The notes under the pieces: generated by a model | The model's database searches: none | Told to the model about the DNA's origin: nothing | The model's input: the letters and a program-made list of their open reading frames with translations, nothing else | DNA from: a virus | Virus genome (UHGV): UHGV-0269933 | Length of the DNA: 13,616 nucleotides | Strand: one strand, 5' to 3' | Part shown: positions 91 through 11,276 of the stretch, piece after piece | Numbering within the stretch: the stretch's first letter is position 1 | Layout of the letters: every line of letters starts with the position of its first letter | Translations under genes and position numbers: made by a program

Positions 91-115
91 GATACACGAA
101 CTATAGCGAACGGCG

Positions 116-145
116 TTGAACGAAATCACCAACTAATCGTAATAT
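116..145 (+). promoter_or_regulatory. Sigma70-like promoter for the Abi-like gene (TTGAAC-N18-TAATAT)
   Basis: -35 TTGAAC at 116..121 and -10 TAATAT at 140..145. SD AAGGGG at 164..169 upstream of ATG 180. Confidence 0.4.
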
Positions 146-170: not shown

Positions 171-944
171 ATGGTGTACATGAAGTCTATTCTTGATGAA
201 CTTAGTACTGATATTGAGCGCGCTGAAAGTCTACAGTCCCAGCTGATTAGCGTAGCTACTGGCGGACCTGCGTTACCATATGAATATCAGGAGCTAAGAC
301 GTTTTTTTGTTGAATCACCACTATATAGCAACATTATTCCCTCTTTCGTAAAAACAAACCGCAACACCGACCAATTTTGGCAATTTATTAAATACAAATT
401 TGGTACATATGCTGAAAGAAGGCAGTACATTTGGGATGAATTCCAAGAATTGATGGACTATCTGGAGGGTAAAAACAAAGCACCCGCAGATGAGGACATC
501 TCTGATGTATTAAGACGGTTTGATGAGGATGGTGTTCACACCGTGTGGATGAAAGCACTAGAACGGCGCCACACAGACCCGGATGGGGCGATAACCTCTG
601 CAAGAACACTTCTAGAAACGGTTTGCAAGCACATTCTTGATGATATGGATGTCCCCTATAATAATAAAAATATAGAAATGTCAGAGCTTTATAAAATACT
701 ATCAAAAGAACTTAACTTATCTGCCGACCAGCATACTGAAAGTATTTTCAAACAAATTCTTGGTGGTTGTTCAGCCGTTGTAAATGGGCTAGGTACTCTT
801 CGTAATAAACTTGGTGACGCACATGGAAAGAATCGCTCATCAGTTAAACCATCACCAAGGCATGCAGAACTCGCTGTAAATTTATCAGGCTCAATGGCTC
901 TTTTTCTAATTAGCTCATGGTTAAACCTTAAAGATAAAAATTAA
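171..944 (+). CDS. Abortive-infection family protein (Abi_C-like C-terminal domain); likely true start ATG at 180
   Basis: 257-aa ORF. C-terminal LGTLRNKLGDAHGK motif after a TLLETVCKHIL helix resembles the Abi_C family signature (from memory). AT-rich relative to flanks, own promoter and SD. Confidence 0.55.
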   Translation: MVYMKSILDELSTDIERAESLQSQLISVATGGPALPYEYQELRRFFVESPLYSNIIPSFVKTNRNTDQFWQFIKYKFGTYAERRQYIWDEFQELMDYLEGKNKAPADEDISDVLRRFDEDGVHTVWMKALERRHTDPDGAITSARTLLETVCKHILDDMDVPYNNKNIEMSELYKILSKELNLSADQHTESIFKQILGGCSAVVNGLGTLRNKLGDAHGKNRSSVKPSPRHAELAVNLSGSMALFLISSWLNLKDKN

Positions 945-1227: not shown

Positions 1228-2001
1228 GTAAGCGTGCAGTGAGAACCGTATTGACGAAGTGAAGCTGGTCAGGCAGGCAGAGTAACCCGCCACGGGAGCA
1301 GAGCACCCACCCGGTTCACAGGCCAGTCGGCGATGACATCAAGTACATAATGCAGATAGCGTTCCGGATCCACGCCGTTTAATTTGCACGTCCCGATAAG
1401 ACTGTACAGTGACGCACCGCGCTCACCACCATGATCCGAGCCGAAGAACAGCCAGTTTTTTCTCCCCAGACTGACCCGTCGTAGGGCGTTTTCGGCAATG
1501 TTATTATCCACCTCCACCCAGCCATCTTCTGCATAGCGGATCAGCGCCGGCCACTGGTTCAGCGCATACCCGAACGCCTTCGCCAGTTCTGAGTGCCTTG
1601 AGAGGGTTTTCTGTTTCTCCCGCAGCCACCCCTCCAGTGACGCCAGCAGCGGCAGCACTTTTTGGTGCCGGACTGCCTGCCGTTCCTCTGCTCTTTTACC
1701 TCTGATCTCCGACTCGATGGCATACAGCTCGCCGATCCGTTTCAGCGCCTCTTGCGAATGTCTGTCCTCTGGCTTTACTGGTGTTCATGTATTTTTCAAA
1801 GCCGGGGAGTGTAACTGACAGCGCTCGAAATACCTCTCGCGGTGTGCTAATCACTCGCTGGTGCTCCCGGCCAAATAATCTGATCAGAGGACCACTCAGT
1901 TTGATAGTTGTCATGACTTCTGCACATGGATTCATAGCCGCCTCAGTTAATTTTGGAGAAAGGAAACGGTTAGGCTTTTTTTAGCTCAAAATAGCGCTTA
2001 C
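1228..2001 (-). mobile_element. Internally deleted IS66-family insertion sequence remnant (~0.77 kb)
   Basis: GTAAGCG-type terminal sequences at both ends (1228 on +, 2001 on -). Contains the C-terminal ~170 aa of an IS66 TnpC-like transposase. No matching 8-bp target-site duplication (ctgaatgt vs catttcct). Confidence 0.7.
1269..1783 (-). pseudogene. IS66-family transposase (TnpC) C-terminal fragment
   Basis: Translation ...ALKRIGELYAIESEIRG...LAKAFGYALNQWPALIRYAEDGWVEVDNNIAENALRRVSLGRKNWLFFGSDHGGERGASLYSLIGTCKLNGVDPERYL...LLPW matches the conserved TnpC C-terminus. In-frame stop lies upstream at ~1786; N-terminal two-thirds absent. Confidence 0.8.
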
Positions 2002-5427: not shown

Positions 5428-5620
5428 TGCCGCATTTAGTGCCGCGTTTAGCAATGCCGCACTTAGCGCCGCACCAGTTTTCTCAAAAAATTACGCAAAC
5501 CCAGTAATGACGTGGGTTTCAGTGAAATGCCGCACTTAGCGCGTGTATACAGGGACTAAGTGCGGCATTTGGTCATAAAACATACTAAATGCCGCACATG
5601 CCGCACTTACCGCCGCATTT
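5428..5620. repeat. Cluster of >=5 copies of ATGCCGCACTTAGCGC-like repeats including a 15-bp perfect inverted repeat
   Basis: Copies at ~5428, 5455, 5527, 5554 (inverted), 5588-5620. AAATGCCGCACTTAG-N16-CTAAGTGCGGCATTT at 5526..5571. Hairpin aaaccca/tgggttt at 5497..5519. Confidence 0.6.
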
Positions 5621-8319: not shown

Positions 8320-8499
8320 TACCCAAAATCTGGGTAACGGTCGAAACTACGGGAATTCTCCGGGGTATGCTGCATTGCAGTACACCCGGCACTCTGTTCC
8401 AGTTCTCCCCAGATTTGGGGAAATGGGGTATGCGCCAATGCCGTACACCCTAAACAGCCCAATTTCTGGGTAGTTTCACGTAACCGCGCCATTGACACA

Positions 8500-8519
8500 G
8501 TTCCTGTAATTACAGGAAC
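8500..8519. promoter_or_regulatory. 20-bp perfect palindrome GTTCCTGTAATTACAGGAAC adjacent to TTGACA; candidate operator
   Basis: Perfect dyad symmetry. TTGACA hexamer at 8492..8497 immediately upstream. Confidence 0.45.
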
Positions 8520-8588
8520 GCTCAGGCTTTGACCACCAGCATTAACCCTGGTATCCTGACTTTGCTTAATTTTTTGGTAGTGACATTG

Positions 8589-8616
8589 GCGGCCCGGCAT
8601 GGCCGCTTTTGTTTTA
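8589..8616 (+). terminator. Rho-independent terminator on + strand
   Basis: gcggcc-cggcat-ggccgc hairpin followed by ttttgtttta; ~270 nt downstream of the RHH gene stop. Confidence 0.55.
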
Positions 8617-8634
8617 TGTGACATTCCCCACCCC

Positions 8635-8844
8635 TCACGCTGCTTTGCTGCGGCTCTGCTGCCATGCTGTGACCTCAGAAAGAAGCCAACCAACGGCACG
8701 ACCTCCCAGCTTACGGCGGGCGGGAAAGCTCCCCTCTTTTTCCATCATGTATCGAGTGGTTCGACAAATACCGGTTAGCTGTCGGCACTCAGCCTCACGG
8801 ATAACTCTTTCTGCTGGCTGCTGGGATTGTTTAATATTGTTCAT
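8635..8844 (-). CDS. alpA: AlpA-family transcriptional regulator (prophage CP4-57-type)
   Basis: 69 aa from MNNIKQ; ...[43 protein letters not shown] is the AlpA HTH signature. The longer 81-aa reading would translate through a hairpin and has no SD. Confidence 0.75.
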
Positions 8845-8880
8845 AAAAAAATGCTCTCGTTCGCTAAGGTTCGAGAGCAT
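8845..8880 (-). terminator. Terminator-like hairpin with 9-bp perfect stem directly abutting the alpA start codon
   Basis: On the - strand, atgctctcg-aaccttagcgaa-cgagagcat followed by ttttttt then ATG of alpA. The 3' arm contains the only SD-like GAGAG. Confidence 0.45.
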
Positions 8881-8959
8881 TGTTATTCAACAAAATTATC
8901 ACCGCGACGGTGAGAAAAAAATTATATTCCTCTAAAGGAGTTACCCTTATTCAGTTATA

Positions 8960-9802
8960 TCAAGATAATTCTTTCCTGATTTTATCTAAAGAATCACTTC
9001 TTATGATTTTATCCAAGAAAGGTTTTACCGTTTGAGCTATGGCAAAGGACTCCTTTTCTCCATCCGGGAACAGGGATACTGCGAGTACGCCAAGAGATAT
9101 TTTGCTGTCGGTAGCGCTTTCCCATGACATCAAATCAATAAGTGGAATTATTCTGTAGTCAATTATTTTCCGTCTGACGCTCTCCCAGTCCCCTGAGACT
9201 GGCTTATCTGGTTCAGGTATTCCGAGTTCTTCGCGCCATTTTGGGAGGAGGTTCGTGAATGCTTCAATCAAAAGATCATCTCTGTTGTTTAAGTCAACAG
9301 TAATCATCACGTTTTCCACAACATCAGAAAGTAAGTTTACTGGCTCGCGCATGATAGCCCAAAACATACCGTTATCTGCTGTAAACAAATCCCCCACCAA
9401 ATCATCGTCAACTACTATTGGCTTTCCTTTCCAGTGACCTTTATCAGCATTGATTTTATTTAAAAATGCCAACTCAAATCTCATTAATGGTTTTATACCA
9501 TCGCCGTAACTTAATTTTAGCAAATCAGGCTGAGTCTTGTACTCGTATTCCTTTTGCTTTTCAAGAAACCATTCTTCTGCTTTGAGTTCCCCGAATGGAT
9601 CACCAAAATTATTGTTAAGCGGGTATTTAGCACCATATTGCAAACCATAGTCAGGGCAGTCTGTATTTTTTATTGCTAAATCATCGCATCGCCAATAGAG
9701 CTGACGAAACAAATCCTTATCAGACATATTTTCAAGGTCATCATATTTTTCCAAGCTGAATGACTTTGGTAAGTCTCTTTTACTGTTAATTTTTTTTGTC
9801 AT
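8960..9802 (-). CDS. Hypothetical protein (280 aa), AT-rich cargo gene translationally coupled to integrase; function unknown
   Basis: ATG overlaps the integrase stop codon (ATGA). Markedly lower GC than neighbours; acidic, Lys/Asp/Glu-rich; no motif recognised. Confidence 0.6.
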   Translation of the reverse strand: MTKKINSKRDLPKSFSLEKYDDLENMSDKDLFRQLYWRCDDLAIKNTDCPDYGLQYGAKYPLNNNFGDPFGELKAEEWFLEKQKEYEYKTQPDLLKLSYGDGIKPLMRFELAFLNKINADKGHWKGKPIVVDDDLVGDLFTADNGMFWAIMREPVNLLSDVVENVMITVDLNNRDDLLIEAFTNLLPKWREELGIPEPDKPVSGDWESVRRKIIDYRIIPLIDLMSWESATDSKISLGVLAVSLFPDGEKESFAIAQTVKPFLDKIIRSDSLDKIRKELS

Positions 9803-11068: not shown

Positions 11069-11195
11069 ATCTCAATGTTACTCTATGAACAGCAATGAAC
11101 AAAGGCAAACCAGAAAAACGATATTATCGTTATATATCATAATAATACACGAACAACAGCAAACATAACCGAACGGTAAAAAACGTAGGTTTTGA

Positions 11196-11213
11196 AAATA
11201 CGGCATGAACTAA
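11196..11213 (+). other. fis: Last six codons of fis (K-Y-G-M-N-stop) at the island/chromosome junction
   Basis: aaa tac ggc atg aac taa encodes the conserved Fis C-terminus. Stop lies 85 bp upstream of the yhdJ ATG. Sequence upstream is integrase leader, not fis. Confidence 0.5.
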
Positions 11214-11238: not shown

Positions 11239-11276
11239 AAAAGGCGCTACTCGGCATGGGGAAGCGCCTTTTTTAT
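11239..11276 (+). terminator. attR-type direct repeat, the fis Rho-independent terminator
   Basis: Identical to 26..63. GC-rich hairpin followed by a T6 run, upstream of yhdJ. Confidence 0.8.

Follow-up and report, generated by a model that had tools for sequence, protein, structure and literature searches.

A conserved hairpin enclosing the Shine-Dalgarno sequence abuts the alpA start codon of a Gram-negative phage-inducible chromosomal island and is probably part of a composite control element

We analyzed a 13,616-nt stretch of DNA from the virus genome UHGV-0269933, referred to below at its full length as the window. On its - strand, int and a DUF6387 gene read toward alpA across a spacer of 115 nt, and within this spacer a hairpin that contains the Shine-Dalgarno (SD)-like sequence of alpA lies directly against the alpA start codon. 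AlpA is the master activator of Gram-negative phage-inducible chromosomal islands (PICIs), and its expression triggers excision and replication (PMC6092414). We found that the alpA-leader hairpin is not a product of chance and that it is conserved across many Enterobacterales satellites. The genes and the parts of the hairpin are as follows.

11022-9799, - strand: int, co-oriented with alpA
9802-8960, - strand: DUF6387 gene, overlapping int by 4 nt; the int-DUF6387 operon reads toward alpA
8635-8844, - strand: alpA, 69 amino acids, PF05930 (E = 5.9e-16), start codon ATG at 8844
8872-8881, - strand: hairpin 5' arm, AAUGCUCUCG, whose CUCUC resembles an anti-SD and which pairs with 8859-8850; recognized from sequence, fold and covariation (50 and 87 leaders)
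8860-8871, - strand: loop of the hairpin, AACCUUAGCGAA, 12 nt, with conserved ends AAC...YGAA
8850-8859, - strand: 3' arm of the hairpin, CGAGAGCAUU, which includes the sole SD-like sequence, GAGAG (8858-8854)
8845-8851, - strand: run of seven U directly 3' of the G+C part of the stem, a terminator-type U-tract and the spacer between SD and ATG

Read on the - strand, A8881 and ATGCTCTCG (8880-8872) are followed by the loop AACCTTAGCGAA (8871-8860), by CGAGAGCAT (8859-8851) with T8850, by TTTTT (8849-8845) and then by the ATG (8844-8842); with its 5' context the region reads gaataac-A-ATGCTCTCG-aaccttagcgaa-CGAGAGCAT-T-ttttt-ATG. The first-pass annotation had described a perfect 9-bp stem and a U-run abutting the alpA start codon. 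Direct reading of the strand bore this out, and the pair A8881-U8850 in fact lengthens the stem to 10 bp (8881-8872 with 8859-8850). Five of the ten pairs are G-C, giving the G+C-rich stem of at least five pairs that is looked for in a terminator. The fold of 8886-8842 had a predicted energy of -13.4 kcal/mol (z = -4.64), which none of 200 dinucleotide shuffles equaled, and the hairpin by itself reached -12.8 kcal/mol. A further pair, C8869-G8862, is possible within the loop and would cut it to 6 nt; these positions were C and G in 43 of 50 aligned sequences and never changed on both sides. The hairpin was absent from a promoter and terminator scan because that scan had a loop limit of 8 nt. 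There are 18 inverted repeats of at least 9 nt in the window, the alpA hairpin among them. An inverted repeat of 9-10 bp is thus not rare in itself, and we therefore built the case against chance on conservation and covariation.

We gathered loci by AlpA homology (24 genomic, 80 metagenomic and 80 from viral contigs) and aligned them on the alpA ATG. The comparison set consisted of 87 distinct alpA leaders with the stem-loop, which belong to Enterobacterales satellites. The hairpin directly preceded the alpA ATG in genomes of Enterobacter, Phytobacter, Kosakonia, Raoultella, Tenebrionibacter, Scandinavium, Hafnia, Buttiauxella, Serratia, Yersinia and E. coli, and it was matched weakly in Rahnella (E 0.88). 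Nearly all loci with an AlpA at least 55% identical had the stem-loop at the same place. The two arms changed together, as in CTCTCG/CGAGAG, CCCTCG/CGAGGG, CTCCCG/CGGGAG, CTCCTG/CAGGAG, TCCTCG/CGAGGA, CCCTTG/CAAGGG and CTCCTTACG/CGTAAGGAG. To quantify this we used a gap-free alignment of 50 sequences that had been pre-filtered to at least 8 of the 9 core pairs. In it 92.3% of cells were paired, a percentage that the filter inflates, and changes on both sides occurred at 10 of the 13 pairs, a count that the filter does not inflate. None of 500 shuffles attained any of the five measures observed, pairing fell to 33-53% when the partner was shifted by 1-3 columns, and RNAalifold recovered an 8-bp core unaided.

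As an unfiltered check, we searched with a covariance model, which matched 61 of the 80 metagenomic alpA loci picked by AlpA homology alone (E <=0.01). All matches on the sense strand ended on the alpA ATG, and there were no matches away from alpA in 236 kb plus 251 kb (~490 kb, including P4, KplE1 and a CFT073 prophage region). A search of positions 8400-9200 against Rfam 15 gave best matches of E 1.8 or worse, far under the gathering scores.

The core cells that departed from Watson-Crick pairing comprised 29 G.U and 4 A.C on the alpA sense strand, a ratio that favors an RNA of this strand over a DNA palindrome. If the inverted repeat were a DNA operator for a dimeric protein and its RNA structure irrelevant, its symmetry would be accounted for, as would the protein-type boxes in its center and the other palindromic operators nearby, both of which are described below. 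The excess of G.U cells speaks against this, however, and the arms change compensatorily while the recognition helix of AlpA is invariant. In addition, the arms are always SD and anti-SD, and the boxes are direct rather than inverted repeats. We give a purely DNA-level explanation very little chance.

We then considered what the position of the stem would mean for translation. GAGAG had been named as the only SD-like sequence of alpA, and indeed no other lies within 22 nt of the ATG. An SD-like tetramer fell within the 3' arm in 84 of the 87 leaders and was mostly a better one than that of the window (GAGG, AGGAG or AAGGAG). In any transcript that includes the 5' arm, the predicted probability of the SD being unpaired was ~0, while without the 5' arm it was 0.77-0.96 at five of the six SD bases and 0.3 at the last. 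An SD inside a stable stem beside the start codon and a stem kept by compensatory change are two marks of an SD-sequestering hairpin. Since the SD resides so consistently in the 3' arm and the 5' arm is complementary to it, occlusion of the ribosome-binding site appears to be the invariant property of the family. The earlier proposal that the folded stem would sequester the SD therefore has strong comparative support, from the placement of the SD, the covariation of the stem and the predicted pairing.

An ATG at 8880 lies in frame with alpA and opens an 81-amino-acid reading frame, and the first-pass annotation had named initiation there as the outcome that would contradict its proposal. In that case the hairpin would simply encode 12 additional N-terminal residues. 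The window keeps this frame open, as do 57 of the 87 leaders from the corresponding position, and some gene callers give alpA proteins of 78-86 amino acids. The other 30 leaders, however, have a stop, a frameshift or no ATG and keep the hairpin all the same. Moreover, the middle codon of the loop is freely variable, no SD lies upstream of 8880, the Prokaryotic Genome Annotation Pipeline (PGAP) starts the E. coli relatives at the 69-amino-acid protein, and most database entries have 68-69 amino acids. Initiation at 8880 was thus not supported, and we find it scarcely credible.

A second role proposed for the hairpin was to terminate transcription from the int operon. The window has an uninterrupted run of seven T (8851-8845), two of which belong to the stem, and it is one of 68 leaders out of 87 with a U-tract 3' of the stem. 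T was strongly enriched at all six tail positions (65 leaders). In many leaders an A-run on the 5' side extends the stem by pairing with the first three or four U, and these extensions also show compensatory changes (AAAGAA with TTCTTT, ATATG with CATAT, AAAGTG with CACTTT, TGATTG with TAATTA). The T at positions -3 to -1 is conserved though mostly unpaired, even in leaders without an upstream A partner, which fits selection for a U-tract as such. On the other side, 19 of the 87 leaders keep the hairpin and have no U-tract, including all those with AAGGAG-type stems, and the U-run is partly paired. Intrinsic terminator loops are usually 3-8 nt, and the 12-nt loop exceeds this. Another terminator-like hairpin also lies between the int-DUF6387 operon and the alpA hairpin:

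8899-8913, - strand: upstream hairpin TCACCGTCGCGGTGA, then TAATTTTGTT, terminator-like; it may terminate the int-DUF6387 operon or belong to the alpA leader

On these grounds, termination at the alpA hairpin seems plausible to likely in the window and would be an accessory rather than universal feature of the family. The idea of a double gate on alpA, at both termination and translation, accordingly stands for translation, where the comparative evidence is strong, and for termination it is plausible and confined to part of the family. It could be argued that the element is only the intrinsic terminator of int-DUF6387 and that its overlap with the alpA ribosome-binding site is incidental. The G+C-rich stem with its seven U, the frequency of the U-tract and the conservation of T beyond the needs of pairing would agree with this. 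Yet stem and SD geometry are both retained in the leaders that lack a U-tract, the stem stands at a fixed distance from the ATG with the SD always in the 3' arm, the element moves with alpA and not with the upstream operon, and the preceding hairpin is itself terminator-like. We consider this explanation improbable.

The alpA leader belongs to an island whose ends can be recognized in the window. A 38-bp perfect direct repeat, AAAAGGCGCTACTCGGCATGGGGAAGCGCCTTTTTTAT, which is itself a terminator hairpin, occurs at 26-63 and 11239-11276 and bounds 11.2 kb. Positions 11199-11213, a little inward of the right repeat copy, carry a fis-terminus block, TACGGCATGAACTAA, and the right end is flanked by yhdJ-like and acrS-like genes. 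The repeat, the block and the flanking genes together indicate an 11.2-kb Gram-negative PICI at the fis terminus, a class catalogued in PMC10111431. As in that class, int, alpA and the replication genes are co-oriented and the attachment site (att) is at the fis terminus. Further along the - strand are a RepA-type helicase, a D5-like protein, a lambda-E-type capsid gene and a head-decoration gene. Near-identical islands lie beside yhdJ in five E. coli genomes, and Enterobacter soli ATCC BAA-2102 encodes an AlpA 100% identical to that of the window. Transcription of alpA is induced by helper phage, the inducing factor is not known, and AlpA is needed for induction, excision and transfer (PMC6092414, PMC11773190).

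The loop of the hairpin contains two CGAAC boxes, which were not in the first-pass annotation and are an addition of this analysis. Related arrays flank the island's attachment sites.

8873-8869 and 8863-8859, - strand: two direct CGAAC boxes (CGAAC-N5-CGAAC, 10-bp period) in the loop and closing pairs; candidate AlpA (excisionase-type) or Int arm-type site
11086-11110 and 11150-11184, + strand: YRAAC arrays of three and four units, respectively, between the int start and the att copy; shuffle expectation ~0.06 arrays per window
97-121, + strand: third phased array, CGAACTATAGCGAACGGCGTTGAAC, adjoining the other att copy and having TAGCGAACG in common with the hairpin loop

Two phased YRAAC boxes were present in the loop in 75 of the 87 leaders. 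In 7 of these 75 the boxes were inverted as GTTYR-N5-GTTYR (GTTCG in the examples seen) and still lay between the arms, an inversion that suits a DNA site and not a motif of the RNA loop. The scan for phased arrays covered 20 sequences, from the window and 16 loci, and 17 of them had such arrays next to att, versus 0-0.06 in shuffles; a short box repeated head to tail at a period of ~10 bp is the arrangement expected of an excisionase-site array. The mapped TorI sites in the attL of KplE1 are GTTCG, GATCG and GTCCG (PMC2951348), and the K-12 KplE1 sequence at these sites reads GTTCGtcatgGTTCGcttcaGATCG, with the same pentamer and period as the alpA boxes. The exact 14-mer of the loop, GAACCTTAGCGAAC, was found ~125 nt upstream of alpA in an E. 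coli PICI variant that has lost the stem, suggesting that the boxes are selected independently of it. Given that the loop boxes match those of the att arrays and the TorI sites, the leader DNA is probably also an operator for the excisionase-type AlpA, with the arm domain of Int as the alternative binder.

The stemless variant (L188 type) was seen in an E. coli chromosome next to cspD, and its int and alpA are separated by a 420-bp spacer that contains no gene. Its 14-mer is at 2340-2353 of L188, and the same sequence occurs in L098-L100, L104, L106, L107, L170-L173 and L183-L187. We considered a second hairpin-type lock in this cspD-site variant and dropped it, as the fold was no better than shuffles (z = -0.61).

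Conservation of the loop could also reflect a factor acting in trans. The alpA mRNA would then always carry the hairpin, and a helper or island factor would melt or bypass it; such a factor could be a protein that binds the RNA of the loop, a small RNA directed at the 5' arm or a polymerase resistant to terminators. Such a key would suit the dependence of alpA expression on a helper whose inducer is not known (PMC6092414, PMC11773190), the conserved loop bases and the candidate promoters that would start upstream of the hairpin. When we searched the island for an RNA partner complementary to the 5' arm or loop, however, we obtained only short chance matches besides TAGCGAACG in the att-arm array, and the DNA boxes, including their inverted form, already explain why the loop is conserved. 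The antiterminator AlpA of P. aeruginosa, which might have served as precedent, is an unrelated protein (PMC9371919). We regard a trans-acting key as unlikely.

How alpA itself is transcribed bears on which transcripts would carry the hairpin. Neither the window nor eight other modules had a strong sigma-70 promoter for alpA, and the two candidates in the window are the following.

8879-8884, - strand: AACAAT, a hypothetical -10-like hexamer on the 5' edge of the hairpin; transcription would start at about G8872 and leave the 5' arm out of the mRNA; promoter score 4.3
8921-8939, - strand: imperfect palindrome TCCTTTAGAGGA (8939-8928) and perfect TATAAT (8926-8921); alternative promoter/operator candidate; score 4.5, poor -35

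The -10-like signal at the hairpin edge, which ends at the T of the hairpin's ATG, was the sole position-conserved one in the 125 nt upstream (84 leaders). Its second position, the critical A, was A in only ~60% of sequences. Other -10 candidates ended at -45 to -47 in three modules, and the TATAAT of the window is at -77; transcripts from any of these would contain the whole hairpin. Homology between the modules begins exactly at the hairpin. At position 8882 the window has C and its closest relatives have G (aataaGaatg). This C costs the A-run/U-run extension one G.U pair and turns the -10-like hexamer from AAGAAT into AACAAT.

If the edge signal (8884-8879) is the -10 of a helper-inducible alpA promoter inside the element, with a start at about G8872, the hairpin would work as fold-back insulation of the IS10 kind. 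The gene's own mRNA would lack the anti-SD arm and escape both termination and the translational block, only read-through from int or the chromosome would fold the lock, and the boxes, at about +1 to +15, would provide negative feedback by AlpA or Int. Several observations agree with this: the sole position-conserved upstream -10-like signal falls exactly on the hairpin edge, where the homology between modules also starts, unrelated palindromes stand at a fixed distance from that edge in other modules, and a transcript begun at -28 leaves the SD open. It also stands to reason that a lock blind to the difference between own and foreign transcripts would require an extra key. Against it, the critical A is poorly kept, the A-run is explained equally well by pairing with the U-run, the -35 matches are poor, the candidates at -45 to -47 and -77 would put the hairpin inside the mRNA, and the module of the window is without the palindrome geometry at -31.5. 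We hold this to be a real possibility that falls short of probable, and as a refinement of the composite-element reading set out below rather than a replacement for it.

The palindromes were seen in modules other than the DUF6387 type, which have two copies (10-14 bp, of the GTGATATCAC or GGAAnTTCC type) 25-60 nt upstream of the hairpin. One is centered ~31.5 bp upstream of the hairpin edge and the second 22 bp further, which would be -39.5 and -61.5 for a promoter at the edge. Paired copies occurred in L123, L134, L113, L002, L125, L133, L052, L101, L174, L018, L155, L156, L083 and L148, and the palindrome type appears to switch with the family of the upstream gene. The proteins encoded between int and alpA in these modules have 245-290 amino acids and are candidate alpA regulators; Pfam found no family besides DUF6387 among these variable genes. 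A more extended proposal, which we consider rather unlikely as a whole, is that the hairpin is the discriminating half of the PICI helper switch. The promoter would lie inside the element, induced transcripts would escape, AlpA would feed back at about +1 to +15, and the upstream modules would be Stl-like helper-sensing regulators. Each module would then consist of paired palindromes at fixed distances and a 245-290-amino-acid protein, the functional analogue of the Stl repressors of Gram-positive PICIs.

Together these data make it probable that the 45 nt before alpA are a conserved composite control element of the Gram-negative PICI alpA leader, an RNA lock combined with DNA boxes. The - strand transcript would fold into a stem-loop of 10-13 bp in which the 3' arm is the alpA SD and the 5' arm the anti-SD. 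Transcripts with both arms, including read-through from int-DUF6387, would be unable to load ribosomes on alpA. In the window and about four-fifths of its relatives, the U-run should also cause a share of these transcripts to end only a few bases from the ATG. The arrangement probably serves to keep AlpA off without a helper phage. AlpA, as an excisionase-type winged-helix protein, or the arm domain of Int would probably bind the leader boxes and thereby feed back on expression.

Several points weigh against this reading. The results are all computational and come from sequence, and expression, termination and binding are predictions. The leaders share descent, and the inflated pairing percentage, the long loop and the leaders without a U-tract were noted above. 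The GAGAG of the window pairs weakly with the anti-SD (-3.0 kcal/mol, against -5.9 to -8.4 in the four relatives tested), so translation may be poor even with the stem open. The L188-type AlpA variant of E. coli, which is common, is 71% identical and lies at the cspD site, has no significant hairpin (z = -0.61 versus shuffles), and the lock is therefore not obligatory for control of AlpA. As to the boxes, Int and AlpA are both conserved wherever they occur (54% and 71% identity between two island types), so that their binder is not separable by comparing island types. TorI falls below the PF05930 threshold with only a sub-threshold HTH_17 match, whereas the AlpA of the window and P4 Vis pass. 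Finally, AlpA has been published to activate its own promoter, and boxes just before the ATG are hard to square with simple activation of that kind.

Other features surround alpA in the island. Ten nucleotides after the alpA stop, a conserved GGGGTGGGG(a)ATG (8634-8622) provides a good SD and an ATG at 8624, which opens a reading frame of 293 amino acids (8624-7743, - strand) with no Pfam match. Its translation may be coupled to that of alpA, much as in P4, where eta is coupled to vis (PMC10111431). In the E. coli relatives PGAP has nothing on the - strand there, only a short YlcI/YnfO gene opposite. Just downstream of alpA, a hairpin, GCGGCC-ATGCCG-GGCCGC (8588-8607), appears to be conserved across loci, with apparent compensatory changes as judged by eye (GGCAGCT/AGCTGCC, GGCGACC/GGTCGCC). 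In + strand orientation TTTGTTTTAT comes next, which is terminator-like for transcription that converges on alpA. The region after alpA also has a perfect 20-bp palindrome, GTTCCTGTAATTACAGGAAC, at 8500-8519, which is possibly an operator and of which relatives have close variants (e.g. CTCCTGTGATTACAGGAAC).

A second AlpA-family gene (2308-2694, - strand) follows the head-decoration gene, with PF05930 at residues 53-102 of a 144-amino-acid reading frame; its SD is a canonical AAGGAG, and it lacks a hairpin. Two functionally different AlpA paralogues within one PICI have been described (PMC11773190). Copies of AAATGCCGCACTTA in both inverted and direct orientation cluster at 5525-5609, shortly after the end of the RepA-type helicase gene (6983-5619), and are likely to represent replication-origin iterons. 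Near the far end of the island, accessory cargo comprises an Abi_C (abortive-infection C-terminus) protein and an IS66-family transposase fragment, at 171-944 (+ strand) and 1269-1658 (- strand).

A conserved element placed exactly on the alpA start would mark where the helper-phage decision is executed, and would explain how a co-oriented integrase operon can run without leakage of a toxic activator. It offers targets for mutation in the stem, the U-run, the boxes and the -10-like edge, and with them a testable handle on how helper phages activate Gram-negative PICIs. Because the covariance model matches only at alpA, it also provides a sequence-structure signature for finding this class of satellite.

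Each part of the element is of a known kind, whether the intrinsic terminator, the leader hairpin that sequesters the SD or the excisionase boxes with a second role as transcriptional control sites. What appears to be undescribed is their combination, in which a terminator/SD hairpin has two protein boxes in its loop and is placed exactly where a satellite's master activator starts, and we found no published description of this element in the literature searched. In the papers on fis-site PICIs (PMC10111431; PMC6092414), a term search gave no terminator or hairpin at alpA and no description of CGAAC boxes. The islands themselves agree closely with that of the window, with the order int, alpA and replication genes on one strand, the 38-bp att repeat with TACGGCATGAACTAA, and a captured major capsid gene.

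The AlpA of P. aeruginosa is a Q-like antiterminator with residues numbered to at least 142, eight helices, a ring-forming N-terminus, a binding element in the promoter spacer and a terminator downstream (PMC9371919). We rejected it as a model for read-through at the hairpin, since the AlpA of the window is a 69-amino-acid PF05930 winged helix, of another fold and family, and shares only the name.

Intrinsic and attenuator terminators resemble the alpA hairpin in the G+C-rich stem followed by a U-run, and in bidirectional terminators, too, an upstream A-run is able to pair with the U-run. The alpA hairpin differs from them in its 12-nt loop, in a U-run that ends on a start codon and in the SD within its stem, and one-fifth of the family is without a U-tract. 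There is no conserved antiterminator pairing at alpA because the upstream sequence is not conserved.

P4 Vis is also a PF05930 protein (E = 1.7e-20), heads a replication/immunity operon of a satellite and regulates itself; Polo et al. reportedly showed in 1996 that it binds and regulates its own promoter PLL, as the first gene of the late left operon. We rejected the P4 vis leader as a homologous element, as it had no comparable hairpin and P4 no covariance-model match. TorI of KplE1 shares with AlpA a helix-turn-helix core (pairwise E = 3e-4) and is a distant relative. As a formal member of the AlpA family it was set aside, since its Pfam score falls short and a PDB profile search gave only 8c3t, an 'AlpA family' chain. 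The two systems are alike in GTTCG (CGAAC on the other strand) at a 10-bp period and in sites that double as transcriptional control sites. Unlike those of alpA, the regulatory sites of TorI lie at the integrase promoter, rather than in its own leader or within an RNA hairpin.

The fold-back inhibition that Davis, Simons and Kleckner are said to have described in 1985, which shields the IS10 and IS50 transposase genes from outside transcription, has much in common with the alpA leader. In both, the ribosome-binding site is paired with an upstream complement, the gene under control is a mobility switch with dangerous effects, and read-through can arrive from a co-oriented source upstream. They differ in that the start inside the repeat is mapped in IS10 and hypothesized for alpA, and in that the alpA element adds a U-tract and the boxes in its loop.

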